Assembly (NCBI GenBank): GCA_964609095.1
Contig: CAZSQN010000002.1
Span: forward strand, 152,066-216,065
Source of the DNA: an uncultured Gammaproteobacteria bacterium
GTDB lineage: Bacteria > Patescibacteriota > Patescibacteriia > CAZSQN01
Length of the DNA: 64,000 bases
Direction: 5' to 3'
Shown: positions 4,739 to 60,506 of the stretch, piece by piece
Numbering within the stretch: the first letter of the stretch is position 1
How the letters are laid out: the number at the start of each line of letters is the position of its first letter
Notes under the pieces: model-generated
Database searches by the model: none
What the model saw: the letters and a program-made list of their open reading frames with translations, nothing else
What the model was told of the DNA's origin: nothing
Made by a program: the position numbers and the translations under genes

Positions 4739-4739
4739 A

Positions 4740-10937: not shown

Positions 10938-11639
10938 CTAACGGCGTCCGACGGTATTAAAATAAATAATCGCGCCTATTGCTTTAATGCCGTCCTTCCA
11001 GTTTATTTTTTTCCCTTCTTTATAAGTGCGCCCCCTGTAAGAAATGCCCACTTCATAAATGCGCGATTGATTAGCCGCAAGGCGCGCCGTGATCTCCGGC
11101 TCAAAACCAAAACGGTCTGATTTAAGCGACGGCGCTATCTTCCGGATAACTTCGCCGGCAAACGCCTTATAGCAGGTTTCCATATCCGTGAGATTTAAGT
11201 TGGTAAACATATTGGAAAGGGTGGTCAGGACCCTATTGCCCAAAGCGTGCCAATAATACAAAACGCGGTGCGGATGCGAGCCCAGGAAACGCGAACCGTA
11301 AACAACATCGGCGTCTCCGTTCACAATCGGCTTTATAATCCAGGAAAACTCGGCCGGATTGTATTCCAAATCCGCGTCTTGGATAATCACCACGTCGCCA
11401 GTGGTCCCTCCAAAACCGATTCTTAACGCCGCGCCCTTTCCCATATTTCTGGTCTGATAAACAATCTTGTGCCGTCCCTCGTATTCTTTAAGAATATCCC
11501 TCGTTCCGTCCGTTGAGCAGTCGTCCACAATCACGATTTCTTTTTCAATGCCGCCGATATCAGCATCCTCCACGCGGCGCAAAATTTCGCGAATGGTATT
11601 TTTTTCGTTAAAAACAGGTATGACAACGGATAATTTCAT
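10938..11639 (-). CDS. GT2 glycosyltransferase, polyprenol-phosphate sugar synthase (DPM1-like)
   Basis: [10 protein letters not shown] ... [10 protein letters not shown]2 signature; size and layout like Dol-P-Man/polyprenol-P-sugar synthases. Confidence 0.75.
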
Positions 11640-15950: not shown

Positions 15951-16851
15951 GCCCGACGCGCGGCGTAAAGTCCAGACATTGCCGCATCTTGCTTATCTGC
16001 GGCCAACGATGCCAGACCTCAATTTTCCGCGGCGGCAAAAATTCCGGTTTTATACTTTTCCCGGAAATGGAAATTATTTTTTCAGCCAGTTCCAGGACGG
16101 TTGTCGGCCGTCCGGTGCCGATATTTATCACCTGCCCGTTGGCTTCATCGCGAGTGAGCGCGCAAATCGCGGCTTCCACATTATCATCAACAAAGACAAA
16201 ATCCCTTGTCTGGGTTCCGTCGCCAAAAATTGTCGGAGATTTTCCTTCCAAAACCTGATTGATGAATACGCCGACCACAAAACCGTACTCGCTTCCCTCC
16301 TGCCGCGGCCCGTAAACGTTAAAAAAGCGCAAAGCAACGGTTGGAAGTTTTCTTTTTTCCCAATACGCCCGCAGAAGATTTTCTCCCGCGAGTTTTACCA
16401 CCGCGTAGGGCATTTTGGCGTTAACGGCGCCGTCTTCGCGTTCGGGCAGCTCAAGAGGGTTGCCGTATACTTCGGATGAGGAAGAAAAAACTATTTTTTT
16501 AACTCCCGCGCGCTCGGAGCACTCCAGAATGTTGTTTATACCGGCAATGTCAGCCATCACCTCAAGCGGCGATTCCAAGGTTCTTTTTACTCCCACGATG
16601 GCCGCGTAATGAAACACAAAATCTATCTTGAACTGGGAAAATGCCGCGGCAAGCTCCGTCTTGTTATTGGCGTCTCCTTTAATAAAATAAAAATTGCCGT
16701 TTGTTTTAAGATGTTCAATGTTTGATTCGCGGCCGGTGGAAAGATTGTCAAAACAAACAACAGCCGAGCCCATTTTAAGCAGACGTTCGCACAAATGAGA
16801 GCCGATAAACCCGGCTCCGCCGGTAACTAATGAGATTTTTCCTTCAAGCAT
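15907..16851 (-). CDS. NAD-dependent nucleotide-sugar epimerase/dehydratase (SDR)
   Basis: [19 protein letters not shown]; YxxxK SDR architecture. Tool ORF prefix MCWIKQIMCGVCPAHNLNYVRG is in-frame translation of the upstream REP cluster; real ATG at 16851. Confidence 0.8.
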   Translation of the reverse strand: MLEGKISLVTGGAGFIGSHLCERLLKMGSAVVCFDNLSTGRESNIEHLKTNGNFYFIKGDANNKTELAAAFSQFKIDFVFHYAAIVGVKRTLESPLEVMADIAGINNILECSERAGVKKIVFSSSSEVYGNPLELPEREDGAVNAKMPYAVVKLAGENLLRAYWEKRKLPTVALRFFNVYGPRQEGSEYGFVVGVFINQVLEGKSPTIFGDGTQTRDFVFVDDNVEAAICALTRDEANGQVINIGTGRPTTVLELAEKIISISGKSIKPEFLPPRKIEVWHRWPQISKMRQCLDFTPRVGLEEGLKKTYEAYLR

Positions 16852-16852
16852 A

Positions 16853-17176
16853 CCCCGCACATAATTTAGGTTATGTGCGGGGCATACCCCGCACATAATT
16901 TGCTTAATCCAACACATAATTCAGATTATATGTTGAATCTGATAATTAGATAATATACCTCCCCGCATTCTTACAAACAAACTGAATTATGTGCGGGGTG
17001 ATAAACTTCCTCTCATTATGGGCGCAAAAGTACGAATTGTCAATGCGGTTAAAATGTCTTATAGTTAAACGAACAGTATGCCCCGCACATAACTTTGCCT
17101 ATTATAGCGTGGTGCGGGAAAGTAAAAAGATTAAAATATTGTTTGTCTGATTTTATTAAGTAAATTATGTGCGGGG
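16853..17176. repeat. divergent-promoter intergenic region packed with six copies of the 12-mer unit CCCCGCACATAA/TTATGTGCGGGG
   Basis: Copies at 16853 (C form), 16871 (G form), 16887 (C), 16987 (G), 17081 (C), 17165 (G). 16853-16882 is a perfect 12-bp-stem hairpin. 17081-17176 is a 96-bp cassette resembling the 4740-4835 element. Both flanking start codons abut a unit. Confidence 0.75.
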
Positions 17177-17177
17177 T

Positions 17178-18344
17178 ATGAATAAGCCCAAAATACTTTA
17201 TCTCATTACTCAAGCCGAATGGGGCGGCGCCCAACGTTATGTTTTTGATTTGGCAATCGCTTTTAAAACGGAATTTGACGTGTCTATCGCGGCTGGAGCC
17301 GAAAATGGCGACGATTCGCTTTTAAGGCGATCCCGAGACAACGGAATACGCACAGTTGAAATTTCAAACCTGCATAGAGAGATACGGCCAATTGAAGATA
17401 TCCGCGCGCTTTTAAAAATACGTTCACTGCTTAAAGAACTTAAGCCGCAAATACTTCATCTAAACAGCGCCAAAGCAGCCGTCCTCGGAACTTTGGCCGC
17501 GGCTTGGACAGGAATAAAAATAGTTTATACGGTGCACGGCTGGTCGTTTCTCGAACCGCTTTCAATATGGAAAAAGGCGGCCTATCTTATTTTTGAAAAA
17601 ATATCTTGTTCGTTTGGCCGCGAGGCCACCATACTTTTAAGCCAAAAAGAATTGGCGGCCGCCAAAAAATACGGATTGAATTGCGGCGAAACAGAAATTA
17701 TTTTTCATGGAATTGCTCCGCCGGCATTTTTGGACAAGGAAACCGCCTTGCAAAAATTAAACGAACATCTGCAAAAACCTCTGCCCAAAAATGCCCTTTT
17801 AATAGGCACCGTCGCCAACCTTTATGAAACAAAAGATATCGCCAACCTCATCGAGGCGTTAAAAGGCGTAAATGAAAATTTTATTTCAATCGTCATCGGA
17901 ACAGGGCCTTTATTTGGCCGCCTTAAAACATTGATTGAAGAGGAAAAACTTTCAAACCGCGTTATTTTGGCCGGAAAAATCATACCGGCAACGGAGATAT
18001 TAAAATCCTTTGATATTTTTGTCCTGCCATCGGCCAAAGAGGGTTTCCCCTACGCGATTTTGGAAGCCATGGCCGCCGGACTGCCTATTGCCGCCACTTC
18101 CGTCGGAGCCATTCCGGAAATGATTGAAGATAAAAAAAGCGGCCTTATAGCGCCGCCTAAAAACCCGGGCGCGCTTAAAACCGCGATTGAATCGCTTTTG
18201 AAAGATGAAAATCTTCGTTCCTTGCTCGGCCAGACAGCCGCAAATGAATTCAAAATCCGTTTTTCAAAAGATAAAATGGTTCAAGCGACAAAAGAAATCT
18301 ATTTAAAGTTTCTTTCTGATTCGTCAAAAAGCAGGGAAATCTGA
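17178..18344 (+). CDS. glycosyltransferase family 4
   Basis: MNKPKILYLITQAEWGGAQRY GT4 N-terminus. Tool start (GTG at 17169) lies inside the repeat; ATG at 17178 preferred. Confidence 0.8.
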   Translation: MNKPKILYLITQAEWGGAQRYVFDLAIAFKTEFDVSIAAGAENGDDSLLRRSRDNGIRTVEISNLHREIRPIEDIRALLKIRSLLKELKPQILHLNSAKAAVLGTLAAAWTGIKIVYTVHGWSFLEPLSIWKKAAYLIFEKISCSFGREATILLSQKELAAAKKYGLNCGETEIIFHGIAPPAFLDKETALQKLNEHLQKPLPKNALLIGTVANLYETKDIANLIEALKGVNENFISIVIGTGPLFGRLKTLIEEEKLSNRVILAGKIIPATEILKSFDIFVLPSAKEGFPYAILEAMAAGLPIAATSVGAIPEMIEDKKSGLIAPPKNPGALKTAIESLLKDENLRSLLGQTAANEFKIRFSKDKMVQATKEIYLKFLSDSSKSREI

Positions 18345-31726: not shown

Positions 31727-32899
31727 TTACGGGTTAATAATTCTTGGCGTTGAACTGGATTCGTCTGTTTTTATTTCATCAAAATTTTGCATTTGGAAAC
31801 TGGATGTAGCGCTTCCGTCTTGGCTTTGCGCCCGCACCTTAACTCCGTCTAAATTCAAGCCGCTTCCCTGGCCGGACGAACCTGAACCGGTCAGCGCCGG
31901 AGTTGAAGAATTGCCGCCGGAAGTAAGCGTAACCGTAACCGCCGTTACCGCGCGCACCAATTCCGTGCTTTCTTTAATCTTGCTTAAAGCCGAAACAAAA
32001 TCCCCTTCGGAAATCGCCTCGCGCGCTTCGCCGATAGCTGTTTTAACTTGAGCGGCAGATGACGGGGTTGAAGTGGCGGAAGAATTATCAACCATCTGCT
32101 CCGCTCTTTTTTCTATATCGTTGATTTTATTGGTTACCGAATCCTGGACCTCTTCCATTGATAAAACCGTGGAGCTGGAAGAAGTGTGCGCCACCACCAT
32201 TACTTCAACCGCCTTCACGCTCGCGTCTTCGGCAACTTCTTTTGCTCCCTGCACCATGCCCAGGGCCTCGCCTTCAGAAACCTTTTTTTCAACTTCTCCC
32301 AAAATCTGCTGGTGAACCTCGCTTTTAGCGTCAATTATTTTTGCCATCTGCACGACTTTTTCCGGCTCGCTTTTCGGGTCATCCAGATACTGGCTGGCTG
32401 TTTCCATTTCCTGTTTAAAGTCCTTCACGGCCTTGGCAATCCGGCTTACATTGTTTCCGGAATTGGAATCAGTAATTTTGGAAACCTCCTGCACGCGCCG
32501 GCCGGCAAACTCAATATGAAGTTCGGCTTTGGCCTCGGCATTGCTTGTAAGCCGCACCTGCGCCTCTTCGGTTATTCTTTTAAGGGGATAAAGCAGGTCG
32601 CCCGGAACGCTGTTAAGAGAAGCGGAAACAGTGGTCACGCTGCTGCCAAAAACAATGCCCCCGACAAGCACAATCACGGAAGCAACGCGACCGGCCACGC
32701 GCATATCGTCAATTGGCGCGAACGCGGCAACAACTTCTTTGGCGCGTTCAAGATATGAGAGAGGCCGCGGATTTGGTTCCACGGTATTTTTTACCTGCAT
32801 CATCAAAGTGCTTCTGGACGCCTCAACCCACTCTTTATTCGGCATTCCTAAATCACTTTTTCGCAGGTTCTTAAATTGTTCTTTTAACGCGTCTTTCAT
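31727..32899 (-). CDS. hypothetical membrane-anchored protein, probable anti-sigma factor partner of the upstream ECF sigma
   Basis: ATGA overlap with the ECF sigma gene; single predicted TM segment around residues 60-90; no recognisable catalytic motif. Confidence 0.4.
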   Translation of the reverse strand: MKDALKEQFKNLRKSDLGMPNKEWVEASRSTLMMQVKNTVEPNPRPLSYLERAKEVVAAFAPIDDMRVAGRVASVIVLVGGIVFGSSVTTVSASLNSVPGDLLYPLKRITEEAQVRLTSNAEAKAELHIEFAGRRVQEVSKITDSNSGNNVSRIAKAVKDFKQEMETASQYLDDPKSEPEKVVQMAKIIDAKSEVHQQILGEVEKKVSEGEALGMVQGAKEVAEDASVKAVEVMVVAHTSSSSTVLSMEEVQDSVTNKINDIEKRAEQMVDNSSATSTPSSAAQVKTAIGEAREAISEGDFVSALSKIKESTELVRAVTAVTVTLTSGGNSSTPALTGSGSSGQGSGLNLDGVKVRAQSQDGSATSSFQMQNFDEIKTDESSSTPRIINP

Positions 32900-33444
32900 G
32901 ATTTGTTCATTAATTCGCGCAATGTTTTTGAAGCGCGGTGCAATGTTACCCTTACGGCGCCTCTATTTTTATCAAGAATATCCGCTATCTCTCCTACGGA
33001 AAGTCCGTCTATATATTTAAGCTGAACAACTTCCCGATATTCTTCTTTCATCTTGTTCATTGCCGCAAGCAAAAGTCCGAAATCGTGTTTTGTTTCAATC
33101 TCCTTACCCTGCCTGCCTTCGTCTCCAAACATCGCCGCCGGTAATTCCGATTCCGTTAAAACGGACATCGCCTTTTTTCTGTAATGGTCAATCACTAAAT
33201 TGCGCGCGATTTTATAAAGAAAAGACGAAAGCTGTTTTATCTGCTTACCTTCCTGCAAATACTGCCAGGCCCGCAAAAATGTTTCCGAAACCAGATCGCG
33301 CGCCTCTTCCTCTCCCGAAACCTTAAAATAAATAAACCGATAGATTCGGTTTACGTATTCATCATAGACCTTTCCATACGCCTCCGGGTCCTTGCGGCTC
33401 GTTATGCGGAAAAGCAGGAGTTTTTCTTTTATATACTTGTTCAT
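32896..33444 (-). CDS. RNA polymerase ECF-type sigma factor (sigma-70 family, regions 2 and 4)
   Basis: 182 aa; region-2-like YRFIYFKV..ARDLVSETFLRAW and region-4 HTH LSVGEIADIL..GAVRVTLHRA. Confidence 0.75.
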   Translation of the reverse strand: MNKYIKEKLLLFRITSRKDPEAYGKVYDEYVNRIYRFIYFKVSGEEEARDLVSETFLRAWQYLQEGKQIKQLSSFLYKIARNLVIDHYRKKAMSVLTESELPAAMFGDEGRQGKEIETKHDFGLLLAAMNKMKEEYREVVQLKYIDGLSVGEIADILDKNRGAVRVTLHRASKTLRELMNKS

Positions 33445-33657
33445 GTATTAAGACGGAAAAAATTGATAAACGTTACAGCGGTTAAAGGCATTAGACATTA
33501 TATTGCTATATATAAAGCCATTTGCCGGATAAAATCAAGATGTTGATAAAAGATATCCGGCTGATTCTGAATGATTTATCTATATGTGGATAAATATGAT
33601 TTGCCAATTCCCATATTATTTGTATATACTAATATATACAAATAATAAATACTACTT

Positions 33658-34226: not shown

Positions 34227-35294
34227 TCAAGGCCGTGCTTTTAAGGTAATTTCTTTTGTTTCTTCGCGGCCGTCTTTGCGGCGGATGGCAAAACGCGCTG
34301 ACGCTCCGACGGGATATTCCGCGATCCGTTCTGACAAACTTATTTTCGCGGTTAGCTCGTCATCATCAATTTTTAAGATAACATCTCCGTCTTCCAATCC
34401 CGCGAGCTGCGCCGGGCCTCCTCTAACCGCTCCGCGGCGGCCGCCTGACGAAGCAATCAACGCTCCGCGCTCGCCATCCTCGCGCTTTGACAAAGTCGCT
34501 CCGAGGTCAATATAATTTACGCCCAAGAAAGGACGGGCTATCTTCCCCTGGCGCAAAAGCTCTCTAAATGCCGGCGACAGGTATTCAAAAGGAATGGCTG
34601 TCCCCCGCAAGGGATCGGTTAGCACGCCGACAAGATTGCTTTTTTCGTCAAACAACGGGCCGCCGGGCAGATTAATATCTTTTGTTCCCGAAACAAAAAC
34701 TGATTTTTTTGTTTTTTCGGATGATTGAATTTCATTTGCCTCGCCATTGATATAATTGATTCCTAAAAATTTAGGGCGATAGACATTCTTGAGATAATCA
34801 ACCGCCAGAAGTTCCGCGCCGGGGGAAAGCTCCCTGCTACTGCCGCCGCCGACTGCCGCGAATCTTTCTCCTTTAATGCGGAGAAAGGCCGCGTCAGTTG
34901 CCGTATCATAAATAATTGATTCAACCTGATGCGGCGCCCTATCCCCGGTCACGGCCAAAATTTTAGCCGTTCCCAAACGCGCGACTTTGGAAGTGGTAAC
35001 AGCCCAGCCGTCGGAAGTAAGCATGGCGCCATAGCCAAGCTGGTCATCATAGGTCGGCGGCGCCTTGCCGCGATTCACGTAAAAGGTGACGAGGCCAAGG
35101 TTAGCTCTTTCAATCTTGTCATTTTCTTTTTCCAATCCGCCGCGGTCAACCGGAGGCCTTAAAAAACTTTCTTTAATCCCGTAAACAGGCGCGTAAACGC
35201 CGGCGATAATAAGGCCGCCCAAAATGCCGGAGATTAAACCGAAAACAGAGGAAAGAAAAATAATTTTTAAAATTTTCCACCTAAATTGGGGCAT
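34227..35294 (-). CDS. HtrA/DegP-like trypsin-fold protein with C-terminal PDZ domain, catalytic His and Ser not conserved (probable pseudo-protease)
   Basis: Trypsin-fold plus PDZ layout (GDVILKIDDDEL). The expected TNAHV and GNSGGP motifs read TTSKV and LPGGPL here. N-terminal TM anchor. Real ATG preceded by TTGTGTGCGGGGT. Confidence 0.55.
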   Translation of the reverse strand: MPQFRWKILKIIFLSSVFGLISGILGGLIIAGVYAPVYGIKESFLRPPVDRGGLEKENDKIERANLGLVTFYVNRGKAPPTYDDQLGYGAMLTSDGWAVTTSKVARLGTAKILAVTGDRAPHQVESIIYDTATDAAFLRIKGERFAAVGGGSSRELSPGAELLAVDYLKNVYRPKFLGINYINGEANEIQSSEKTKKSVFVSGTKDINLPGGPLFDEKSNLVGVLTDPLRGTAIPFEYLSPAFRELLRQGKIARPFLGVNYIDLGATLSKREDGERGALIASSGGRRGAVRGGPAQLAGLEDGDVILKIDDDELTAKISLSERIAEYPVGASARFAIRRKDGREETKEITLKARP

Positions 35295-35295
35295 A

Positions 35296-35427
35296 CCCCG
35301 CACACAACTTGTTTAATCCAATCATATCACGAATGATATGCATTTAATTAACCAAGCCATGTTAATGATTTTTGTTTCTCATTAAGAAGAACATAAAATA
35401 TAAGCTATAAGCAGGTTGTGTGCGGGG
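35296..35427. repeat. REP-unit-bounded 132-bp element (variant arms CCCCGCACACAA / TTGTGTGCGGGG)
   Basis: Seen directly. Internal palindrome catatcattcgtgatatg. The 3' arm abuts the ATG of the HtrA-like gene. Confidence 0.65.
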
Positions 35428-37995: not shown

Positions 37996-38383
37996 GGGGG
38001 ATGCAGGGTTTCGATCAGGAAGTTCCTTTAAACAATCACGTCGGGGGCCATACCCCGTTATAAATAGGAATCTATTACGTGCAAACGTATTTTCTAGAGT
38101 GAAGAGCGCGTTGGCGAAAGCTTTTGCGACTCCTTCGCTCGTTATGGTCGCGGCCTAAAACCGCTTCCCATCCGCCCTGTTGACGTCCGATAAATAGGGG
38201 CCGGGTGTCATATTTCGGGCCTTTGCGCAAAGCATCCTCGTATGCGAATCGTAGATTAGAGGATCGGACGCGATGAACTCTGTCCGCCTTTATCATCGCG
38301 TTCAAAATTGAGACGGACTAACGTGCAGTATTGTTTAAATTCTCTTCTTGAGACGCGGGTTCAACTCCCGCCATCTCCACCAA
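37996..38383 (+). ncRNA. ssrA: tmRNA (ssrA)
   Basis: 5' GGGGGGATGCAGGGTTTCGA..., 3' tRNA-like end ...GCGGGTTCAACTCCCGCCATCTCCACCA. Internal in-frame tag reading frame from GCA AAC ... ending ...LVMVAA then TAA. Immediately downstream of smpB. Confidence 0.85.
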
Positions 38384-38390
38384 AATAACG

Positions 38391-38450
38391 AGCTTTTAGC
38401 TGTTAGCTTATAGAATTTCCTATAAGCTATAAGCTATAAGCTATAAGCTA
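38391..38450. repeat. tandem-heptamer hairpin, family B copy 2
   Basis: agcttttagctgttagcttatag ... ctataagctataagctataagctataagct between tmRNA and infC. Confidence 0.7.
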
Positions 38451-39010: not shown

Positions 39011-39084
39011 ATAGGGTATAGGGTTTAGCGTTTAGGGTTTAGAAAAATTCACTGAACGCTATACGCTAACCGCTGAACGCTAAA
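39011..39084. repeat. tandem-heptamer hairpin, family C copy 1 (GTTTAGC/GTTTAGG arms)
   Basis: gggtttagcgtttagggtttag ... cgctatacgctaaccgctgaacgctaa; fills the infC-rpmI intercistronic gap. Confidence 0.7.
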
Positions 39085-39287: not shown

Positions 39288-39356
39288 AGGGTAGAGGGTT
39301 TAGCGTTTAGGGTTTAGGCAAAAAAATCTAACCGCTAAACGCTAACCGCTAAACGC
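39288..39356. repeat. tandem-heptamer hairpin, family C copy 2
   Basis: gggtttagcgtttagggtttagg ... ctaaccgctaaacgctaaccgctaaacgc; fills the rpmI-rplT gap. Confidence 0.7.
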
Positions 39357-39364
39357 TATTATTT

Positions 39365-44067: not shown

Positions 44068-44433
44068 ATGAACAATGAGCCAACAACCAATGAAGTTCTT
44101 GAAGCAATCAACACTCTGTCAACTCATATTGATGAACGTTTTACGCGAGTTGAAAATGATATCACTGGCATAAAAGGTGATATCACTGGCATAAAAGGTG
44201 ATATCACTGGCATAAAAGGTGAGATTATCGAAATCAAGGCCACCATGGTTACTAAGGATTATCTTGATGACAAACTTGCAGATTTGCGAGGCGACCTTGT
44301 GGTCTTGATGCGCAAGGAAGACAAAAAGGTTCAGAGTTTGGTGGAATTGCTTCACTCTAAAAAAGTCATTTCCGAAGAAGAAGCCAAGCGCATTCTCTCC
44401 ATGGATCTTTTTCCGCAAGTTTCTCTGCGATAA
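44068..44433 (+). CDS. hypothetical protein containing three perfect tandem DITGIKG heptapeptide repeats
   Basis: Perfect 21-bp x3 DNA tandem repeat at 44157-44219 (gatatcactggcataaaaggt); remainder predicted helical/coiled-coil; AT-rich. Confidence 0.45.
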   Translation: MNNEPTTNEVLEAINTLSTHIDERFTRVENDITGIKGDITGIKGDITGIKGEIIEIKATMVTKDYLDDKLADLRGDLVVLMRKEDKKVQSLVELLHSKKVISEEEAKRILSMDLFPQVSLR

Positions 44434-44850: not shown

Positions 44851-46128
44851 TTAAAGAACTTTTTTCAGCTCATCCAAAGTCGGCTCAATCACCACCGATC
44901 TATTGGCCAAAGGCGAATCTGATTCGTGGAAATTCAGAGTTGCCGTCTGGTCTTTTAAGAAATGTCCGGTCAAAATACAGACAACAAAATCGCTCTCCTC
45001 TATAATTCCGCTCGCCCGCAGTTTCAGAAGTCCGGCCAAAGTGGCGCAGCTTGCCGGTTCCGCGCCAACGCCTTCGCGGTCAAGCAGGGCTTTGGCCTCC
45101 ATAATCTCCTCATCGCTTACTTTTTCCACCACGCCTCTGGTAAACCTGATGGCTTGCGCCGCTTTACTATGATTTATCGGAACGCCTATTTCAATGGCCG
45201 AGGCGATTGTTTTCGCCTCCGGCAGAACAAAGCGCATAGTGAAATTTTCCCTAAACGCTCTATAAAACGGATTGGCGCCCTTGGCCTGGATTACGGCAAG
45301 GCGCGGCATTTGCGAATAATCTATCACGCCCGCAAGAAATATCTCCCTAAGGGCTTTGCCAAAAGCGGAAACATTTCCCAAATTGCCGCCCGGCAGAATA
45401 ATCCAATTTGGCAACTGCCAATGCAGCTGCTCCAGCAGTTCCCAGATAATCGTCTTCTGCCCTTCCAAACGGACGGGATTAATGGAATTCACAACATGCA
45501 GTCCCAGTTCCGAACCGTGAGCGGCCACCAGCTTCATGCAGGCGTCAAAGTTGCCGCGCACTTTGATAACGCGGGCGCCATAAGCAATTGCTTGCGAGAC
45601 CTTGCCCAAAGCCACACGTTCGCTGGGCATCAGGATATAAGCGCGCATTCCCGCGGCGCGGGCATAGCTTGCGACAGAGGCCGCCGTATTGCCGGTGCTG
45701 GCGCATAGAAGCGCGCGGCTGCCAAGATGCTTTGCCCAAGAAACAACAACAGTCATGCCGCGATCCTTAAAGGAGCCGGTCGGATTCTCGCCTTCATGCT
45801 TAAACATCAATTTGCGCACGGCCGCCATCTCCGCCAGCTTGGAAAATTCATAGACGCGCGTATTGCCTTCCGCTCTTGAAATAATTTTTTCGTCCGGAAA
45901 TCCGGGCAGAATAAGATCGCGATAACGCCAAACGCCGGAGGAGTCCGGCAAATTTTTAGCTCCCCATCTGCGCTCCAAAATCCGCATCCAGTTCTGCCAT
46001 CTCAATTGAGCCAATACTTCGCTATGGTCAACTTCCAAGAGCCCGCCGCATTCGCAGAGATTGCGTCCGGAAAGCAAGGGGTATTTCCGCTCGCAAGAAC
46101 TTTGAACGCACTTCAAAACCGATTTCAT
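44851..46128 (-). CDS. thrC: threonine synthase
   Basis: PLP-lysine motif FKDRGM, 425 aa, ThrC N-terminal Cys cluster. Confidence 0.85.
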   Translation of the reverse strand: MKSVLKCVQSSCERKYPLLSGRNLCECGGLLEVDHSEVLAQLRWQNWMRILERRWGAKNLPDSSGVWRYRDLILPGFPDEKIISRAEGNTRVYEFSKLAEMAAVRKLMFKHEGENPTGSFKDRGMTVVVSWAKHLGSRALLCASTGNTAASVASYARAAGMRAYILMPSERVALGKVSQAIAYGARVIKVRGNFDACMKLVAAHGSELGLHVVNSINPVRLEGQKTIIWELLEQLHWQLPNWIILPGGNLGNVSAFGKALREIFLAGVIDYSQMPRLAVIQAKGANPFYRAFRENFTMRFVLPEAKTIASAIEIGVPINHSKAAQAIRFTRGVVEKVSDEEIMEAKALLDREGVGAEPASCATLAGLLKLRASGIIEESDFVVCILTGHFLKDQTATLNFHESDSPLANRSVVIEPTLDELKKVL

Positions 46129-46162: not shown

Positions 46163-47179
46163 TTATTCCGCTCCAAGCAGTTTCGCCCCGGCTGAACTGA
46201 ATTGGCTCCCATAGGCGTTTCCTCTGCCAAAGGCAGAAGCCATCGCCGCCGCGATCATCAGCGCTTGGTGATAGCTTTCCGCAACCACAAATAACGACGG
46301 TCCGGCTCCTGATAATCCAATGGCGGCTTTTGCGCCAAGATGCTTTGCCGCGCTTTTGGCAACGGCAACGGCCTTGGCATATATTCTCTTTCCGTAAAAT
46401 TCAAACCGTTTTGGCGTCACCAACTCATCGCTTTCAACAATGGAAACAAACTCGTCAAAATCACGATGAGAGATCGCCTCAATCAGGCCAAGAGATGCTT
46501 TGGCTGACCTTTCGCGAACTTCAAACCAAAATCCAATATCTTGAGGCAAAATCTCGCGGCTGGACTTAGTTGATTCCTTGGAAAACGGCGGCGTAAAAAC
46601 CGCTATACCCCAATCAGGCAAGTCGTGGATAAACTTAGCGCGCACGTTTTTATCATCTTCGCTGATTATTGATGTAAATCCGCCCAAAAGAGAAGCCGCC
46701 GCATTATCATAATGAGCAACTCCGGAAGAAACGGCCTCAACACCTCCGGCAAGTTTAACGGCCTCTGAAAGACGAAATCCGGCGTTTAACTTCTTATTAA
46801 ATGCCTGATTCTTCCCGACAAGGGCTGAGGCGCTGACTAGTCCGGCAACTGCCGAAGCCGCTGATGAGCCAAGCCCGTATCCCGCCGGCACGCCTTTCCA
46901 AACCCCGACTTCAATGCCGATTGATTTTTCCCAATCAGGCGCGAGCGCGTCTAAAGCAACTTTAACCGCGATGGACGCGATGTTTTCTGCCGGATTGTCC
47001 GAGGTTCCCAAAAGCAAACTGTCTTTGGATAAGACAACGCCGCGAAGGCGGCTGTTTGCTTTTACGGAAACAACATCCCAAAAATACGGAAAAGACAAAC
47101 CCACTCTGTCAAAACCAGGTCCAAGATTGGCGATGGAAGCCGGCGCCTTTGCGCGCGCTTCGCTGTATTCCAATTTCAT
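46163..47179 (-). CDS. thrB: homoserine kinase (GHMP kinase)
   Basis: PASIANLGPGFDRVGLS GHMP motif. Confidence 0.8.
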   Translation of the reverse strand: MKLEYSEARAKAPASIANLGPGFDRVGLSFPYFWDVVSVKANSRLRGVVLSKDSLLLGTSDNPAENIASIAVKVALDALAPDWEKSIGIEVGVWKGVPAGYGLGSSAASAVAGLVSASALVGKNQAFNKKLNAGFRLSEAVKLAGGVEAVSSGVAHYDNAAASLLGGFTSIISEDDKNVRAKFIHDLPDWGIAVFTPPFSKESTKSSREILPQDIGFWFEVRERSAKASLGLIEAISHRDFDEFVSIVESDELVTPKRFEFYGKRIYAKAVAVAKSAAKHLGAKAAIGLSGAGPSLFVVAESYHQALMIAAAMASAFGRGNAYGSQFSSAGAKLLGAE

Positions 47180-47224: not shown

Positions 47225-48280
47225 TCACCTTCTTGGCAAGAGTCCTTTTGCCGCCAGCAGTTCCGCGTTTAATATTGAACCTCCGGCCGCGCCGCGAATG
47301 GTATTATGAACCAAAAGCGTGAATTTGTAATCCAAAACATTATCCGGCCGCAAACGGCCGATAACCACGCTCATCCCATCGCCCTCATTCCTGTCTTTTC
47401 GCGGCTGAGGCCGGTCATCCTCTTGGCGCAAAACAAGACAATGCTTTGGCGCGCTTGGCAGATTAAGTCCGAAAATAGACGGAACAAATTCAGAAAACGC
47501 GCGGCGCGCTTCTTCTATGGTCGCTTTGCGCTCAAATTCCGCGCTGACGCATTCCGTATGCCCGTCGCGCACGGCCACGCGATTGCAGTGCGCCGATATT
47601 CTAAACTCCGCCGGAATAAATCCTGAAGGCGACAATCCGCCCAAAATTTTTCTTGGCTCCGATTCCACTTTTTCTTCTTCGCCGCCGATATAAGGAATGA
47701 CATTATCCAGAATATCCATAGAGGCCACGCCCGGATAACCGGCGCCGGAAAGCGCCTGCATCGTCGTGACTATAACTTTTGTTATTTTAAAATTATCGTG
47801 CAGCGGCTTTAACGCCATAACCAGACCGGTTGTGGTGCAGTTGGGATTGGTAATGATAAACCCGGACGAGCCGCGGCGCTGCTTTTGCAATTCCAATATC
47901 TCCAAATGCTCCGGATTAACCTCCGGCACAAGCAGAGGCGCATCAACATCCATCCTGTGATTTTTTGAATTTGAAAGCACGGCATATCCGGCTTGCGCGA
48001 ATCTTTCTTCAATCTCTCCGGCAACGGAGGCGTCTAAGGCGGAAAAAAGCGCGTCGCAGGGAAGATTGGAATAAACATCGCTTACGGCCATGCCTTTAAC
48101 TTGCTCCGGCATTGGCTCGTCCAATACCCATTTTGTCGCTTCGGCATAAGATTTTCCGGCCGAGCGTTCAGATGCGGCAAGAGCGGTTAACTCAAACCAA
48201 GGATGATTTGACAATAATTGGACAAACCGCTGTCCGACTGCGCCGGTCGCGCCTAAAATTCCGACACGATACTTTTGCAT
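47225..48280 (-). CDS. asd: aspartate-semialdehyde dehydrogenase
   Basis: VGILGATGAVGQRF Rossmann, active-site Cys context SGAGYPG..CTTT. Confidence 0.85.
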   Translation of the reverse strand: MQKYRVGILGATGAVGQRFVQLLSNHPWFELTALAASERSAGKSYAEATKWVLDEPMPEQVKGMAVSDVYSNLPCDALFSALDASVAGEIEERFAQAGYAVLSNSKNHRMDVDAPLLVPEVNPEHLEILELQKQRRGSSGFIITNPNCTTTGLVMALKPLHDNFKITKVIVTTMQALSGAGYPGVASMDILDNVIPYIGGEEEKVESEPRKILGGLSPSGFIPAEFRISAHCNRVAVRDGHTECVSAEFERKATIEEARRAFSEFVPSIFGLNLPSAPKHCLVLRQEDDRPQPRKDRNEGDGMSVVIGRLRPDNVLDYKFTLLVHNTIRGAAGGSILNAELLAAKGLLPRR

Positions 48281-48286
48281 AAACTA

Positions 48287-48351
48287 AGCTGTTAGCTGTT
48301 AGCTTTTAGCTGTTAGAAGTTTCGTGACCCCTAAAAGCTATAAGCTAAAAG
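48287..48351. repeat. tandem-heptamer hairpin, family B copy 3, occupying the entire hom-asd intercistronic space
   Basis: agctgttagctgttagcttttagctgttag ... ctaaaagctataagctaaaagctaaag; begins 6 nt from asd ATG and ends at the hom stop. Confidence 0.75.
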
Positions 48352-49386
48352 CTAAAGTGCGCCCAGCAGCCGAAGAATGTCTCCCATCATCCCCTGCGCC
48401 GTCACTTCCGCTCCGGCTCCGGGCCCGCGGATAATGAGCGGATGGCGAAAATATCTTTTGGTGCGGATAACGGCCATATTTTCCGGGCCGGAAAGAGTGG
48501 CGAGCGGATCGCCGGAGGCGAGCGGCTCTATGGCGACGCGCGCGCCAAAGGGAGTGGCTGTCACCGCATATCCCAGTTTTTCATTGCGTTTGTATTTATA
48601 ATCCTCTTCCCGCAGATTTTCCAAAAATTCTTTTATCGGCGCTTCTTTAAGCCCATCCGGAACAAGCGATTCGGATTGAACCAGTTCGGAAGGCAGTTCC
48701 GCGCCAAGCGCGCGCGCCAAAATCAGCGCTTTTCTTTTCACATCGGCTCCGGAGAGGTCATCGCGCGGATCCGGCTCGGTATATCCGAGCTTGTGCGCCT
48801 CGCTTACGGCTTCGGAAAAAAGTTTTCCGGAAGAAACTTCGTTCATTATATATGAAAGCGTACCGGAAAGCAGTCCGCGAATATCAATAATCTCATCGCC
48901 GGAAGCGCGCAAACGTTTGATGGTTGAAATAATCGGCAATCCGCCGCCCACCGTCGCCTCATAACGAAAGTTGCGCGTCAAATAAAATTTCTTGCATTCC
49001 TCATACGGACCGGCCAGCGGCTTTTTGTTGGCCGTCACAACCGCCGCGCCGCCGTCAATAATTTTGTTCCAAAATAAACCAGTTTCGCCTGCCGTGGCAT
49101 CAACGATAAGAAGGTTGTTTTGATTAAGCGACAAAACGCTCTTGGCCAATTCTCCCAAATCTTTATTCGGCAAACTTTGCGGATGCGATGATAAACTGCG
49201 TTTTAGAACAATCTTTTGATAATCTTGCAGAGAAGTTTGCTCGTCTAAAATATAATTCTTGCTGTCGGCAATTCCAGCCAATCTGAACTTAATATCCGAA
49301 CCAAGGCCCGAGAGCTGTTTAAGAAAAGAGTTCCCCACGCCGCCAATGCCCAACAAAAATAAACTTGCGCCGTTCATACGGGGCAT
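48352..49386 (-). CDS. hom: homoserine dehydrogenase
   Basis: LLGIGGVGNSFLKQL NAD-binding N-terminus; HDH catalytic-domain texture. Confidence 0.8.
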   Translation of the reverse strand: MPRMNGASLFLLGIGGVGNSFLKQLSGLGSDIKFRLAGIADSKNYILDEQTSLQDYQKIVLKRSLSSHPQSLPNKDLGELAKSVLSLNQNNLLIVDATAGETGLFWNKIIDGGAAVVTANKKPLAGPYEECKKFYLTRNFRYEATVGGGLPIISTIKRLRASGDEIIDIRGLLSGTLSYIMNEVSSGKLFSEAVSEAHKLGYTEPDPRDDLSGADVKRKALILARALGAELPSELVQSESLVPDGLKEAPIKEFLENLREEDYKYKRNEKLGYAVTATPFGARVAIEPLASGDPLATLSGPENMAVIRTKRYFRHPLIIRGPGAGAEVTAQGMMGDILRLLGAL

Positions 49387-50762
49387 ATAAAAGCATTATG
49401 AATGGCTTTTACCGCCGCCTCCGCGTCGCTTGCGGCCACGGCAAAAGATATGTTCAGTTCCGATGAACCTTGGGCAATGGCCAAGATGTTTACTCCGGCA
49501 CCGGCCGCCGCGGAAAACGTTTTGCCGGCAATGCCCGGCGTGCCAGCCATACCCGCGCCAACTACCGACACGATGGACACGTTTTCATCCAAAATCGCTC
49601 CTTCAACCGATTTCATTTTTATTTCATTGGCAAAAGCGCGCTCCAAGGCGGCTTTAAGGCGCAGCCCGTCGGCGCGGTCAACAATCATGCAAATGCTCTG
49701 CTCCGACGACGCTTGAGTAATCATAATGATATTAGCCCGCTCGCGGGAAGCAACTTCAAAAACGGCTGCCGCAAAGCCGACGCGGCCGCGAAGCCCCAAA
49801 CCGGAAACGGTTATCAAAGATACTTTTGAAATGGCCGTGACTACTTTCACGCCTTTTCCGTTGCCGTAAGCGTTTTTGCTGATTCTCGTGCCCGATGAAT
49901 TGGGGCGAAAAGTATTTTTAATGATAATGGGAATGCCCGCGCCAAAGGCCGGAAGCATTGTTTTGGGATGGATTACTTTCGCGCCAAAATAACTCATTTC
50001 AATCGCTTCGGCGTAACTTACTTCCGATAAAATCTTCGCGTTTGGCACAATCTTTGGGTCAGCGGAAAGAATCCCGTCAACATCGGTCCAAATCTGGATT
50101 TCTTCCGCTCCAAGCGCGGCTCCGAGGATGGCGGCGGTATAATCGCTTCCGCCGCGGCCAAGCGTGGTGGTGGCGCCGTCATGGCTTCTGGCGATAAAAC
50201 CGGTAACTACGGGTATGATATTAGCCCGAAGCAGCGGCAAAATAAGGGCTCGCAGCCGTTCGTTTGTTTTTGTAAAATCCACTTCTGCCGATGTGTACGA
50301 ATCATCAGTAATAATGCCGTCGCGCGAGTCAATAGCCGCGGCGGAAACGCCGACGGAAGATACATAAGCGGCAAGAATGGGGGCGGCCATCCGCTCGCCG
50401 CATGAAGCGATTAAATCCAGCGAACGCGCCGTTAGCTCGCGCAAAAGAATCAGTCCGGAGAGCACCTGCTTTAATTCCAAAAAAATCGCGTCCAGCTCCG
50501 CTATTACTTTTTCTCTTGCTTCAAAAGAAGCCGGGACGGCCTCATAATGCTTTTTCTTCAAAGCGTCAAAACGAGACGCTGCCTCGCCGGAGGAACCGGA
50601 GGCGGCCAAACGGGCAAGTTTCAAAAGCTCGTCAGTCGCTCCGCTCATGGCGGAAGTGACGACAATCGGATGTTTCTCCCGTTTGGCAAAAACAATATCT
50701 GCCGCCTGCCTCATGGCTTCCAATGTTCCAACCGAAGTGCCTCCAAATTTCATGACTATCAT
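49374..50762 (-). CDS. lysC: aspartate kinase
   Basis: MIVMKFGGTSVG kinase N-terminus; C-terminal ACT-like region; first ATG at 50762 (tool start at 50777 is TTG). Confidence 0.8.
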   Translation of the reverse strand: MIVMKFGGTSVGTLEAMRQAADIVFAKREKHPIVVTSAMSGATDELLKLARLAASGSSGEAASRFDALKKKHYEAVPASFEAREKVIAELDAIFLELKQVLSGLILLRELTARSLDLIASCGERMAAPILAAYVSSVGVSAAAIDSRDGIITDDSYTSAEVDFTKTNERLRALILPLLRANIIPVVTGFIARSHDGATTTLGRGGSDYTAAILGAALGAEEIQIWTDVDGILSADPKIVPNAKILSEVSYAEAIEMSYFGAKVIHPKTMLPAFGAGIPIIIKNTFRPNSSGTRISKNAYGNGKGVKVVTAISKVSLITVSGLGLRGRVGFAAAVFEVASRERANIIMITQASSEQSICMIVDRADGLRLKAALERAFANEIKMKSVEGAILDENVSIVSVVGAGMAGTPGIAGKTFSAAAGAGVNILAIAQGSSELNISFAVAASDAEAAVKAIHNAFICPV

Positions 50763-50872
50763 AAAACGAAGAACCAACGGCTATGAGGCCGTTGGTTTTG
50801 TTTTTAATTCCAACCTGCCTCACTCTAAAGAGAGGTAGCTGTCGTGGTAGTGATTAAAACAAACATTTCCAT
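50763..50872 (-). promoter_or_regulatory. threonine-operon leader peptide and transcription attenuator
   Basis: 15-aa ORF MEMFVLITTTTATSL (50825..50872, minus) with ACT ACC ACG ACA in a row. Downstream hairpin aaccaacggc/gccgttggtt (50772-50797) followed by UUUU 10 nt before the ask ATG. Segment gagtgaggcaggttgg (50808-50823) is complementary to ccaacggcctca of the hairpin (antiterminator). Confidence 0.6.
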
Positions 50873-50922
50873 AAATTTATGGTATCCCAACGGATAAAGA
50901 CAGTCAAAAATAAAATGTGGAT

Positions 50923-50951
50923 AATAAAAAAACCCCGCCAATCCAACGGGG
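50923..50951 (-). terminator. intrinsic terminator of sigma-factor gene (ggcaaaccccgttggattggcggggttttttt on minus strand)
   Basis: GC stem plus 7-U tract immediately after the stop at 50960. Confidence 0.7.
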
Positions 50952-50959
50952 TTTGCCAA

Positions 50960-51973
50960 TTACGGAGCAACAAGAGCATTCTTTAACTTTTGGAGCGCGC
51001 CTGCTTCAATTTGGCGAATGCGCTCGCGAGAAAGCGGCTCTGTACGCCCTTCCTGAACGGAAGCGACAAAACCGCGTTGTCCGATTTCCTGCAAAGTCAG
51101 CCCGCCATTAAACCTTAGCTCCAGCACGGCGCGTTCCCTGTCGCTAAGCACGCGTTCCATAGCCAATCGCAACCGGACAATATCTTCCTTTTTGCCGATT
51201 TCATCATCGGGAGATGATTCTTCCGGAGCAACGAGGAAATCAAGATACTCATCATTATGAGCGGGAGCAGAGTCGCTTTCCCTAACTTTACGGTTTAAAG
51301 ACATAACGGAAACTTGATTTTTCTGCGCATTTTCAATATCAGTTGGCTTGCAATCGGCCAGTTGGGCCAATTCAGCAACGGTCGGATTTCGCCCGTGTTT
51401 TGCGTAAAACCTATTAACAAGACGCCTGAGAGTTATCTGCCTCTCCACCATATGAATCGGCGTGCGCACCGTCGGACCCAAATCGTGCGAGGCCCGCGAA
51501 ATATAATGTCTGATCCACCAGGAGGCGTAGGTTGAAAAACGCAATTTTCTTTTTGGGTCAAAACGCAGTATGGCCTGAAAGAGCCCCTCAATGCCAAAAC
51601 CAACCTGGTCGGCCTTAGTTACGGCGCCGAAACTGCTAAAGCGATTGGCGATGGAGATGACCAGACGGATGTTCCTCACCACCATCGCGTCAAAAGCCCG
51701 GCGGGCTTTGCCGCTGAATTTACGAAGTAATTCGCGCTTATCAATCTCCTGCCAAAGTATGGGGCGGCTTGGAGAAATCCTTAGAATCCGGCGAATCTCG
51801 CGGTCAATAATTCCGGCATAGGCCAGCTCCTCATCCGGAGTCGGCACCGCGCGCGCCTGGATTTCTTTTAAGAAAGCCGGGCTTAAATCCGCTCCGAATC
51901 CGGCGTTGGCAAAACCGCTAAAATTATTGCGTCTTCCGGTTCTGGGCTTTTGCGCAAATTTCTTTTTTCCCAT
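50960..51973 (-). CDS. RNA polymerase sigma factor, RpoD-family (short primary-like sigma)
   Basis: Region 2 TYASWWIRHYISRA and RpoD-box-like VRTPIHMVE; region 4 HTH LTLQEIGQ. Confidence 0.8.
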   Translation of the reverse strand: MGKKKFAQKPRTGRRNNFSGFANAGFGADLSPAFLKEIQARAVPTPDEELAYAGIIDREIRRILRISPSRPILWQEIDKRELLRKFSGKARRAFDAMVVRNIRLVISIANRFSSFGAVTKADQVGFGIEGLFQAILRFDPKRKLRFSTYASWWIRHYISRASHDLGPTVRTPIHMVERQITLRRLVNRFYAKHGRNPTVAELAQLADCKPTDIENAQKNQVSVMSLNRKVRESDSAPAHNDEYLDFLVAPEESSPDDEIGKKEDIVRLRLAMERVLSDRERAVLELRFNGGLTLQEIGQRGFVASVQEGRTEPLSRERIRQIEAGALQKLKNALVAP

Positions 51974-57976: not shown

Positions 57977-58420
57977 TTATTCCTCTTTATCTTGATTTAA
58001 TCTCGCGGCAAGGCGAAACTCCAGTTTCCTCAAACCCCACAAAATCAAAAGCGTTAAAATAACGCTGGCTATGGCAATGGAATAAAGGCGCAGACCCACG
58101 GCCGCTCCGATGGCGGCCGTAATCCATAGGCCGGCGGCGGTGGTCAGCCCGCGCACCTTGCCGCCCTGGACAATAATCAAGCCGGCGCCAATAAAACCAA
58201 CGCCGACAACAATCTGCGAGAGCACGCGCGAAGGGTCAAAATAAGGAGAAGTAGAAAACGCCTCCGACAGAACGGAAAAAAGGCAAGCCCCCAAGGCCAC
58301 TAGGGCGTAAGTGCGCAGCCCGGCTGATTTGCCGGTCCATTCGCGTTCAAAACCGATAATACCGCCGAGCAGAGCGGCGATAACAAGCTGTCCTATGATT
58401 TGGTAATCGGGAAAAAACAT
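57977..58420 (-). CDS. MgtC/SapB family membrane protein
   Basis: QLVIAALLGGIIGFEREW signature of the MgtC family. Confidence 0.8.
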   Translation of the reverse strand: MFFPDYQIIGQLVIAALLGGIIGFEREWTGKSAGLRTYALVALGACLFSVLSEAFSTSPYFDPSRVLSQIVVGVGFIGAGLIIVQGGKVRGLTTAAGLWITAAIGAAVGLRLYSIAIASVILTLLILWGLRKLEFRLAARLNQDKEE

Positions 58421-58427
58421 ATTTTTA

Positions 58428-59066
58428 TTATATCAACCCGTAAACAAAATTTACAAATCCTCTAAAGAGCAAACTGAATATGCCAAGCCCAAAAAAAGAA
58501 TCAAGCAAAATTATTGCCAAAAGAATCAGCGGGCCTCTTGTCTCCATCGACAGCATCATTGGCGCGTACTTTGGAGAAGAAAGAACCGCAAAAAGAAGCT
58601 TTGACCCGTCAAGAGGCGGCACGGGAATCAGATTAAAAAGCAGCAGAATGAGATTGATGGTCAAAAATAAAAATAAAAACTGGATTAAAAGATTGGAAAC
58701 GGACAAATCGGTTGTCAGCCGCAAAGTTTTTAAAACCAGCACTGAGATGCCGGCAAAAAAAAGATTTGCCGCCGGGCCGGCAAGCCCCACCAGCGCCGGT
58801 CCCCATCTTTTGACTGAAAGATTATAAGGATTAAACGGCACCGGCTTGCCCCAGCCAAAACCGACAAAAATAAGCGCCAAAAATCCAAGAAGGTCTATAT
58901 GCGCCAAAGGATTAAGAGTGAGGCGGCCGGAGTTCCTGGCCGTAGAATCGCCCAAAACAGTGCTGGCGAGCGCGTGCGAGAATTCATGAACCGTCAGCGC
59001 CGTCAAAATGGCAATGACCCAGACGACAAAACCAAGCGGACTTTCCATTAAAAGATTAAAAGGCAT
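58428..59066 (-). CDS. site-2 protease family (M50) zinc metalloprotease
   Basis: HEFSHAL HExxH in TM helix plus NLIPVPPLDG (LDG motif). Tool ORF's 29-aa prefix is repeat readthrough; real ATG at 59066 is preceded by TTATGTGCGGGGT. Confidence 0.75.
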   Translation of the reverse strand: MPFNLLMESPLGFVVWVIAILTALTVHEFSHALASTVLGDSTARNSGRLTLNPLAHIDLLGFLALIFVGFGWGKPVPFNPYNLSVKRWGPALVGLAGPAANLFFAGISVLVLKTLRLTTDLSVSNLLIQFLFLFLTINLILLLFNLIPVPPLDGSKLLFAVLSSPKYAPMMLSMETRGPLILLAIILLDSFFGLGIFSLLFRGFVNFVYGLI

Positions 59067-59067
59067 A

Positions 59068-59167
59068 CCCCGCACATAAATTTGTTTAATAATTATACAG
59101 ACAGCATTATAATTTCTCTTTTTATTTTCCCGCACCCCGTTTACAATAAACAAATTTATGTGCGGGG
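59068..59167. repeat. 100-bp cassette bounded by CCCCGCACATAA ... TTATGTGCGGGG, paralog of 4740-4835
   Basis: Shares TIRs, the conserved core tgcgggaaaataaaaa and an attataatg box with the other copy, in the same orientation relative to the downstream start codon. Confidence 0.75.
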
Positions 59168-60431: not shown

Positions 60432-60506
60432 TTGGTCGGGCCGCGGGGAATCGAACCCCGGCTGCAAGACCCCCAGCCTCGCGTACTACCATTATACTAC
60501 GGCCCG
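60432..60506 (-). tRNA. tRNA-Pro (anticodon GGG), CCA encoded
   Basis: Reverse-strand CGGGCCG...acceptor, T-arm CGGGGTTCGATTCCCCG, anticodon stem cgagg/tcttg (with GU pairs), loop CTGGGGG. Confidence 0.75.

Follow-up and report, generated by a model that had tools for sequence, protein, structure and literature searches.

The 64,000-nucleotide stretch analyzed here (contig CAZSQN010000002.1, positions 152,066 to 216,065; in the following "the window", to whose own numbering all positions without further designation refer) contains, upstream of a putative threonine operon ask-hom-asd-thrB-thrC, an element that we regard as a ribosome-mediated transcription attenuator. It would sense charged tRNA-Thr and control all five genes, a reading to which we assign a probability of roughly 0.85. 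Judged by its sequence, the element possesses every feature by which the trpL/thrL/hisL class of attenuators is recognized, namely a short upstream open reading frame (ORF) rich in codons for the end product, an intrinsic terminator between this ORF and the first gene of the operon, and an antiterminator overlapping the terminator in such a way that both structures are mutually exclusive. These sequence elements, their conservation, their mutual exclusivity and their geometry in silico were read directly or computed. An attenuator logic of the Escherichia coli thrL type, acting on a five-gene operon that includes asd, had already been proposed in the initial annotation of the stretch, and each component inferred there is present, but as an analogue and not as a homologue of thrL. 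The parts of the element are arranged as follows:

50872-50825, minus strand: leader ORF of 15 codons plus TAG (50827-50825), with the product MEMFVLITTTTATSL
50851-50834, minus strand: regulatory Thr codons, ACT ACC ACG ACA as codons 8-11 (50851-50840) and ACC as codon 13
50838-50829, minus strand: region 1, CU.CCUC.CU, within leader codons 12-15, which pairs with region 2 if it is not covered by a ribosome
50823-50810, minus strand: region 2 (arm A), GTGAGGCAGGTTGG, which provides the 5' side of the antiterminator and begins 4 nucleotides (nt) past the stop codon
50795-50783, minus strand: region 3 (arm B), CCAACGGCCTCAT, which provides the 3' side of the antiterminator as well as the 5' arm and loop of the terminator
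50797-50763, minus strand: intrinsic terminator with a stem of 10 base pairs (bp), AACCAACGGC/GCCGTTGGTT (50797-50772), the loop CTCATA and the U-tract CUUCGUUUU (50771-50763)

The codons of the leader are ATG GAA ATG TTT GTT TTA ATC ACT ACC ACG ACA GCT ACC TCT CTT TAG. The initial annotation had described a 15-codon ORF on the minus strand, 110 nt upstream of ask, with four successive Thr codons using all four synonyms, one Ile codon and two further Thr/Ser codons. Direct reading agrees with this description: MEMFVLITTTTATSL was found 110 nt ahead of ask-hom-asd-thrB-thrC, the single Ile is codon 7, and the two further residues are Thr at codon 13 and Ser at codon 14. Enrichment in Thr was also observed in nine further leaders that are described below. 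Ile codons occur across the members of the family at positions 5 and 7 only and are absent from some of them. Since these codons are inconsistent and a ribosome stalled on them would leave region 1 uncovered, the sensor looks Thr-specific, unlike that of E. coli thrL, and Ile is probably not sensed.

Downstream of the leader stop codon, agtgaggcaggttgg / AGTGAGGCAGGTTGG is followed by an A-rich spacer. The proposed complementarity between the arm behind the stop codon and the downstream hairpin (its 5' arm together with its loop) was borne out as pairing of arms A and B, both by direct reading and by folding. The loop of this hairpin had been given as ctatgag, which is the plus-strand reading; on the transcribed strand it is CTCATA and comprises 6 nt. 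The terminator stem contains 6 G-C pairs among its 10 bp, region 4 is composed of GCCGTTGGTT and the U-tract, and the hairpin was flagged as a terminator-like site in a terminator scan. On its 3' side, cttcgtttt (CTTCGTTTT) is directly followed by ATGATAGTCATGAAATTTGGAGG. The alternative pairing of region 1 with region 2 would constitute an anti-antiterminator and possibly also a pause hairpin.

For the isolated helices of the window, energies of -10.5 (1:2), -15.8 (A:B) and -18.0 kcal/mol (terminator) were predicted, while A:B pairing in the other leaders ranged from -13 to -28 kcal/mol. The A:B duplex of the window reached -19.6, compared to -9.5 +/- 2.4 for shuffled sequences. Its complementarity to the terminator was better than that of 498 out of 500 dinucleotide shuffles, the corresponding numbers for the nine other leaders being 495-500 out of 500; complementarity was non-random in all ten leaders. 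Moreover, the best duplex of the upstream region with the terminator 5' arm and loop was always located at or just past the stop codon, and its score was equalled by only 0-5 of 500 shuffles in each of the ten leaders. Alternative-structure folding, which the initial annotation had suggested, was performed under constraints by masking the leader transcript from its 5' end up to a point 13 nt away from where the A-site codon begins. With the stop codon in the A site, the terminator fold was obtained for all ten leaders. When the A site was placed on one of the middle or later Thr codons, the A:B antiterminator was the minimum-energy fold in nine of them, the exception being the window. Unmasked RNA adopted the 1:2 hairpin together with the terminator in most leaders.

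From these structures we infer a mechanism that comprises a transcription start, translation of the ORF, pausing with kinetic competition, and a response to threonine. Transcription would be initiated from the promoter TTGACT-17-TACCAT, probably at or beside the A of the leader ATG. With an ample supply of Thr-tRNA, the ribosome would proceed to the stop codon and cover arm A, leaving arm B free; if the leader is not translated at all, region 1 would pair with arm A, and arm B would again be free. In both cases, the 3:4 terminator is expected to form and transcription would end just ahead of ask. If Thr-tRNA is scarce, on the other hand, the ribosome would stall on codons 8-12 and cover region 1, so that arm A is left free to capture the newly made arm B. 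The terminator would then not form, allowing the RNA polymerase to enter the operon.

To what extent the element is conserved can be seen in the nine ask relatives above 60% identity that are contained in a collection of 5.8 billion proteins. The contigs of eight of them were examined and showed that the order sigma70-ask-hom-asd-(thrB)-thrC is kept. Six further lineages whose ask is 61-80% identical carry the element, with an ORF of 15-17 codons including 3-6 Thr codons, both arms and the terminator. Sorted by ask identity and designated by their contigs, their leaders are:

L081, ask 80%: MDLFILITMTTTTSP
L082, ask 70%: MKFVRATTTGTTTSP
L083 / L084, ask 69%: MQSVRVTTTGTATSP
L087, ask 66%: MRMFIFTTLTTTTSP
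L086, ask 64%: MEMFMVTFATTTTYPRG
L089, ask 61%: MRMFIFIAKATTTSP

The N-terminal residues of these leaders drift, and the Thr codons change both their position and their third base. By contrast, GAGGC and GTTGG of arm A are unchanged in all seven members, as is CCAACGGCCTC on the opposite side, while the spacer between the arms is variable (aattaaaaacaaaa versus ttcgtacgcgcttaac). In five members the terminator is in a different register (AACGGCC/GGCCGTT plus ATTTTTT), with its overlap with arm B / CCAACGGCCTC remaining constant. Since the N-terminus drifts, Thr codons shift and the spacer has been rewritten while the arms are invariant, this pattern argues for selection acting on decoding as well as on both helices.

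The same architecture exists in more distant loci. Two outgroup contigs and a third one that is labelled Candidatus Saccharibacteria (L007) possess the following leaders:

L144, ask 53%: MNRVSLTTTTTTTTTTTTRSAG, with 12 consecutive Thr codons
L146, ask 51%: MDSNIGFNFVTTTTTTTTTLSAG, with 9 consecutive Thr codons
L007, with a fused ask-hom gene: MIFFALTTTTATIQANTGEF

L144 and L146 have the arms GCGGGGTAGTTGG / CCAAGAACCCCGC and a terminator of the form CCCGC..GCGGG, and in L007, CACTGGGG within the ORF pairs with CCCCAGTG of the terminator. An architecture shared by outgroups whose arm sequences are unrelated is the strongest structural evidence for the proposed attenuator that sequence comparison has provided. 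According to the initial annotation, attenuation would be unlikely if relatives lacked the Thr-codon run or if the alternative pairing were not conserved. The run is kept in six close lineages, two outgroups and the Saccharibacteria-labelled contig, and the pairing persists even where the arm sequences differ. Beyond these loci, 80 distant ask loci of other phyla were surveyed. In 21 of them, mostly Bacteroidota, a short ORF rich in Thr lies no more than 400 nt ahead of the gene, and those examples that were read also carry terminators. The initial annotation had regarded leader-peptide attenuation as documented in Proteobacteria and a few other phyla; Thr leaders being common ahead of this type of ask, the kind is more widespread than this implied. 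A scan of metagenome contigs with the pattern GAGGCN{1,3}GTTGGN{8,30}CCAACGGCCTC yielded 54 loci, all of which were chance palindromes or coding, none having a Thr ORF. A profile search of genome contigs with the ask alignment retrieved only ask genes of other phyla with at most 48% identity, which supplied the 80 distant loci of the survey, and the lineage of the window was not among the matches.

To understand how the leader could be transcribed and translated, the region between the upstream sigma-70 gene and the leader has to be considered. Two features were detected there:

50954-50930, minus strand: terminator of the upstream sigma-70 gene, AAACCCCGTTGGATTGGCGGGGTTT followed by TTTTATT, stronger than the attenuator hairpin in the terminator scan
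50907-50879, minus strand: promoter identified by a promoter scan, TTGACT (50907-50902), a 17-nt spacer and TACCAT (50884-50879)

Since the sigma-70 gene has its own terminator, the thr leader is a separate transcription unit. The leader ATG of the window begins 6 nt past the -10 hexamer. The geometry TTGACn-17-TAnnAT-6/7-ATG exists in all seven family members, with 6 nt in five and 7 nt in two of them, and the pattern TTGACn-17-TAnnAT-ATG occurs only once within the window. L007 has TTGACG-16-TATACT-7-ATG. Both outgroups fit the leaderless geometry less well, as the distance from the -10 hexamer to the ATG is 10 nt in L146 and the arrangement in L144 is ambiguous. Because the distance between the -10 hexamer and the ATG is that expected between a -10 hexamer and a transcription start, we are inclined to believe that the leader is translated from a leaderless mRNA starting at or beside the A of the ATG. 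Among 53 crudely called gene starts in the window, only 9 show a Shine-Dalgarno-like motif between -18 and -4. A hexamer resembling TATAAT is located 6-8 nt ahead of several starts, e.g. that of the gene at 57977-58420 (minus strand) with tTGATATAATaaaaatATG, and leaderless mRNAs may be common in this genome.

Several observations weigh against attenuation as the function of the element. No Shine-Dalgarno sequence was found ahead of the leader ATG, whose translation would thus depend on the putative leaderless start, nor was one found for ask of the window. The U-tract CUUCGUUUU of the window is interrupted. Furthermore, the window terminator (-18.0 kcal/mol) is more stable than the antiterminator (-15.8 kcal/mol) and is the minimum-energy fold even with a ribosome on the Thr codons. 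Antitermination must therefore rely on the capture of arm B before region 4 is made, and the E. coli trp attenuator likewise relies on antiterminator pairing before the 3' arm of the terminator is made. While 96% of the alignment cells in the seven-member family are paired for A:B and 89% for 1:2, column covariation among these close members is weak, with one compensatory pair per helix, and no better than in shuffles, because the arms are invariant among them. Finally, two of the relatives, L085 (ask 65%; 5349-5462) and L088 (63%; 5930-6001), have a short intergenic region in which no leader was found. The operons of both also lack thrB; in L088, a TAAGAT hexamer is located 7 nt ahead of the ask ATG, and it may be the ask transcript that is leaderless in this relative.

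Some of these points bear on the possibility that tRNA-Thr is indeed sensed, but that the output is mainly translational or Rho-dependent. Stalling would then remodel the hairpin abutting the ask start and control initiation or mRNA stability. The imperfect U-tract and the missing Shine-Dalgarno sequence of ask would fit such a control, and so would the reach of the terminator, whose extended stem and U-tract run up to the ask ATG both in the window and in L081. However, the terminator of the five other members is situated at a distance of approximately 35 to 340 nt from ask and is still conserved with a proper T-run (ATTTTTT, TTTTTT). Thus the terminator, and not occlusion of the start codon, is the conserved feature, and we consider an output of this kind improbable.

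Even less can be said for a constitutive terminator or insulator that separates ask from the sigma-factor gene, is accompanied by a short ORF by chance and exerts no regulation. Runs of at least four Thr codons (ACN), counted in any frame over the whole window, are admittedly not rare, since about two are expected per 64 kb and two were seen, and the Rfam match reported below is not significant. But a conserved promoter comes after the sigma gene's own terminator; seven lineages and three outgroups have kept the ORF and its frame, together with the Thr codons and a stop codon placed beside arm A, and the antiterminator complementarity is, as mentioned, non-random throughout. An insulator is therefore strongly disfavoured and in our estimation very improbable. 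The same low probability is attributed to an RNA switch that responds not to the ribosome but to some other factor, e.g. to uncharged tRNA as in a T-box, to a small molecule or to an RNA-binding protein, with the ORF being incidental. It is true that alternative structures alone do not reveal what selects between them. Yet no match to a T-box or riboswitch family was obtained even at E<=10, the element of about 110 nt is devoid of a conserved region resembling a ligand pocket, and its sole conserved non-helical feature is the in-frame ACN run with free third bases, which is a signature of decoding. Finally, the small peptide is hardly credible as the functional product amid ordinary mRNA hairpins: a C-terminal Thr-Ser-Pro is found in five of seven members, but its codons ACC UCY CCN are region 1 and are conserved at the nucleotide level because this region pairs with arm A, the N-terminal half is not conserved, and the outgroup peptides end in SAG or GEF.

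Further candidates for the hairpin were tried and rejected. The initial annotation had considered that it might be just another structure of the repetitive extragenic palindrome (REP) type. The hairpin (allowing up to 3 mismatches) and arm A, GAGGCAGGTTGG, each match once in the 64 kb, and a unique hairpin is not a REP. A T-box riboswitch had no match up to E=10 in 50500-51100. The hairpin is not needed as terminator of the sigma gene, which has its own. As a plus-strand terminator the hairpin scores well in the scan, but no plus-strand gene ends there.

Comparison of the putative attenuator with known systems revealed the closest analogy in function, though not in sequence, to E. coli thrL. 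Both have a short ORF with a Thr run, an intrinsic terminator, an overlapping antiterminator and four-region logic, and both precede genes for aspartate kinase, homoserine dehydrogenase, thrB and thrC. The leader of E. coli thrL has 21 codons including 8 Thr and 4 Ile codons, whereas that of the window has 15 codons with 5 Thr codons and at most one Ile codon. Homology between the two is not detectable. The window leader is also without a Shine-Dalgarno sequence and probably leaderless, asd is part of its operon, and ask and hom are separate genes. The Rfam model Thr_leader (RF00506), to which the initial annotation had pointed as a check, was not matched above its cutoff: the window scored 18.6 bits (E=0.62) against a gathering score of 55, in an alignment that spans the full model length and is driven by the ACN run and the terminator. 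At gathering thresholds, a search of the whole window against Rfam returned only a tmRNA (37997-38382, plus strand, 114 bits) and a tRNA-Pro(GGG) (60433-60506, minus strand).

Leaders of Bacteroidota (Pedobacter, Epilithonimonas and others) resemble that of the window: their short ORF is rich in Thr, an arm near the stop codon pairs with the 5' arm of the terminator, and the downstream ask belongs to the same subfamily (40-48% identity). They differ by unrelated arms, interspersed Ile codons (e.g. MYINSSITTITTTTTGINRGR) and another promoter type, and they belong to another lineage. Thr/Ile leader-peptide attenuators were reportedly predicted by Vitreschak et al. in 2004 (FEMS Microbiol Lett 234:357). 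A comparative study on attenuators in Actinobacteria cites threonine attenuators in other species and refers for them to Vitreschak et al. (PMC1262725). With regard to the leaderless start, fourteen leaderless leader peptides have been predicted in Deinococcus deserti for genes of amino-acid biosynthesis and tRNA synthetases (de Groot et al. 2014, PMC4007540). As proposed for the window, the coding sequence of these peptides opens the transcript: the AUG coincides with the transcription start, and a Shine-Dalgarno sequence is absent. Their starts were mapped by differential RNA sequencing (dRNA-seq), whereas that of the window family was deduced from a -10 hexamer lying 6-7 nt ahead of the ATG, and the phyla are different. 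In mycobacteria, leaderless polycysteine short ORFs attenuate the downstream biosynthetic operon (Canestrari et al., bioRxiv 10.1101/834739). They share with the window leader that they are leaderless, rich in one amino acid and act as attenuators. The mycobacterial leaders sense Cys and not Thr, and an earlier comparative analysis of the cys leaders revealed no conserved terminator hairpin (PMC1262725), while the window has a clear intrinsic terminator together with an antiterminator.

A second type of control of the leader promoter is conceivable because of a site located on its upstream side:

50924-50916, minus strand: TTATCCACA, a perfect match to the DnaA-box consensus, separated from the -35 hexamer downstream by 8 nt

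This motif occurs twice within the 64 kb, compared to 0.19 expected copies. It was found at the equivalent place in L081, L083, L086, L087, L144 and L146, 6-8 nt ahead of the -35 hexamer, and is thus kept in outgroups whose ask is only 51-53% identical. TTATCCACA is possibly an operator or activator site of the thr-leader promoter, but its belonging to the system is uncertain. The second copy of the window (33585-33593, minus strand) lies about 140 nt upstream of a sigma gene of the extracytoplasmic function (ECF) type (32896-33444, minus strand). In L085 (approximately 10352-10500), L086 (approximately 12280-12430) and L088 (approximately 10955-11100), TTATCCACA is contained in the spacer of another strong promoter downstream of thrC. 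This promoter, TTGACAag-TTATCCACA-gtgtgc-TATAGT, precedes roughly 100 nt of conserved sequence (..ggagagac..ataacggacgcgtgtgtgtttgaggttaatctc), in which no plus-strand gene was called in L085 and which could be a non-coding RNA. This sequence matches no Rfam family and is itself absent from the window. In L089 (1-120), the thr promoter region has an insertion of about 70 nt. With repeated TTGACC at its flanks and an extended palindrome inside, ccccgcccttttgat...atcaaaagggcgggg, this insertion has the appearance of a small element that separates the TTATCCACA site from the promoter in use.

The genes of the operon were assigned as follows:

50762-49374, minus strand: ask, aspartate kinase, 462 amino acids (MIVMKFGG...); Pfam AA_kinase and ACT, NCBIfam TIGR00657 above cutoff
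48352-49386, minus strand: hom, homoserine dehydrogenase; Pfam Homoserine_dh, NCBIfam matches all to homoserine dehydrogenase models and all below cutoffs
47225-48280, minus strand: asd, aspartate-semialdehyde dehydrogenase; TIGR00978 with 448 bits, above cutoff
46163-47179, minus strand: probable thrB, homoserine kinase of the GHMP family; Pfam GHMP_kinases_N and GHMP_kinases_C, best NCBIfam match homoserine kinase, below cutoffs
44851-46128, minus strand: thrC, threonine synthase; TIGR00260 with 254.6 bits versus a cutoff of 167.1

The ask protein is 100% identical to an aspartate kinase of Candidatus Uhrbacteria at NCBI. Its start had been placed 10 nt past the U-tract, but the actual start is the ATG at 50762 adjoining the U-tract, because NCBI calls the protein of 462 amino acids there and the second ATG is GCG in L087; ATGATAGTC is kept at the ask start in all relatives. 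The thrB-like gene and hom are named 'hypothetical protein' by NCBI and appear to be divergent versions, to which functions were assigned by operon context. All proteins of the window that were looked up are exact matches to entries of 'Candidatus Uhrbacteria bacterium' (locus tags HYT45_02xxx). Uhrbacteria are a lineage of the candidate phyla radiation (CPR)/Patescibacteria, and the organism is uncultured and known from a metagenome-assembled genome. The distance of this lineage from Proteobacteria, which had been suspected from the sequence, thus agrees with the NCBI name. The leader has no NCBI annotation, as the entries of ask and the sigma factor carry consecutive accession numbers.

Apart from the attenuator, the window contains several repeats. 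Tandem arrays with a period of 7 nt (AGCTGTT, CTAAAAG, CTATAAG, TAGGGTT and others; 3.4-4.4 copies) are present in several intergenic regions, at 48287-48316 and 48331-48356 (between hom and asd, upstream of asd), 38420-38450, 39012-39084 and 39295-39358. Two of the arrays directly precede starts without a Shine-Dalgarno sequence, including the asd start in the thr operon. Just downstream of thrC, an ORF of 121 amino acids (44068-44433) harbors a perfect 21-nt tandem repeat, TGATATCACTGGCATAAAAGG (44157-44222, plus strand; 3.1 copies, 100% matches), which in frame would encode a repeat of 7 amino acids. The 13-mer TGTGCGGGGTATG has six copies in the window versus 0.03 expected, at 4736-4748, 16849-16861, 16883-16895, 35292-35304 and 59064-59076 (all minus strand) and at 17168-17180 (plus strand). 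Four of them stop precisely at the ATG of genes that look unrelated, in most cases with TTA ahead of the copy (..ttaTGTGCGGGGTATG), and TGTGCGGGGTATG may be a conserved start-site or regulatory motif.

The proposed attenuator is compact, with about 110 nt. Its mechanism is textbook knowledge, so that the gain lies in phylogenetic breadth and annotation and not in a new principle. A full-text search found no literature joining CPR or Patescibacteria with leader-peptide or transcription attenuation; the element would be the first documented case of a leader-peptide attenuator in the CPR. It would imply transcription-translation coupling in a CPR bacterium and a leaderless initiation that is fast enough for a kinetic switch. 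Amino-acid biosynthesis is generally reported to be missing from CPR genomes. It is conceivable, though rather unlikely, that leaderless Thr attenuators, present in lineages related to Uhrbacteria and, provided that the label of L007 is correct, in Saccharibacteria, are ancient and vertically inherited in CPR and are complemented by a second control via a factor binding to TTATCCACA, possibly DnaA. If so, some of these ultra-small bacteria, although supposed to be auxotrophic, would produce threonine themselves and control this pathway in two ways, through tRNA charging and a DNA-binding regulator, and if this regulator were DnaA, the operon would be linked to the state of replication or growth. 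For the lineage at hand, the attenuator implies that these Uhrbacteria synthesize threonine and tune this synthesis to the charging of tRNA-Thr, which is notable for members of the CPR.

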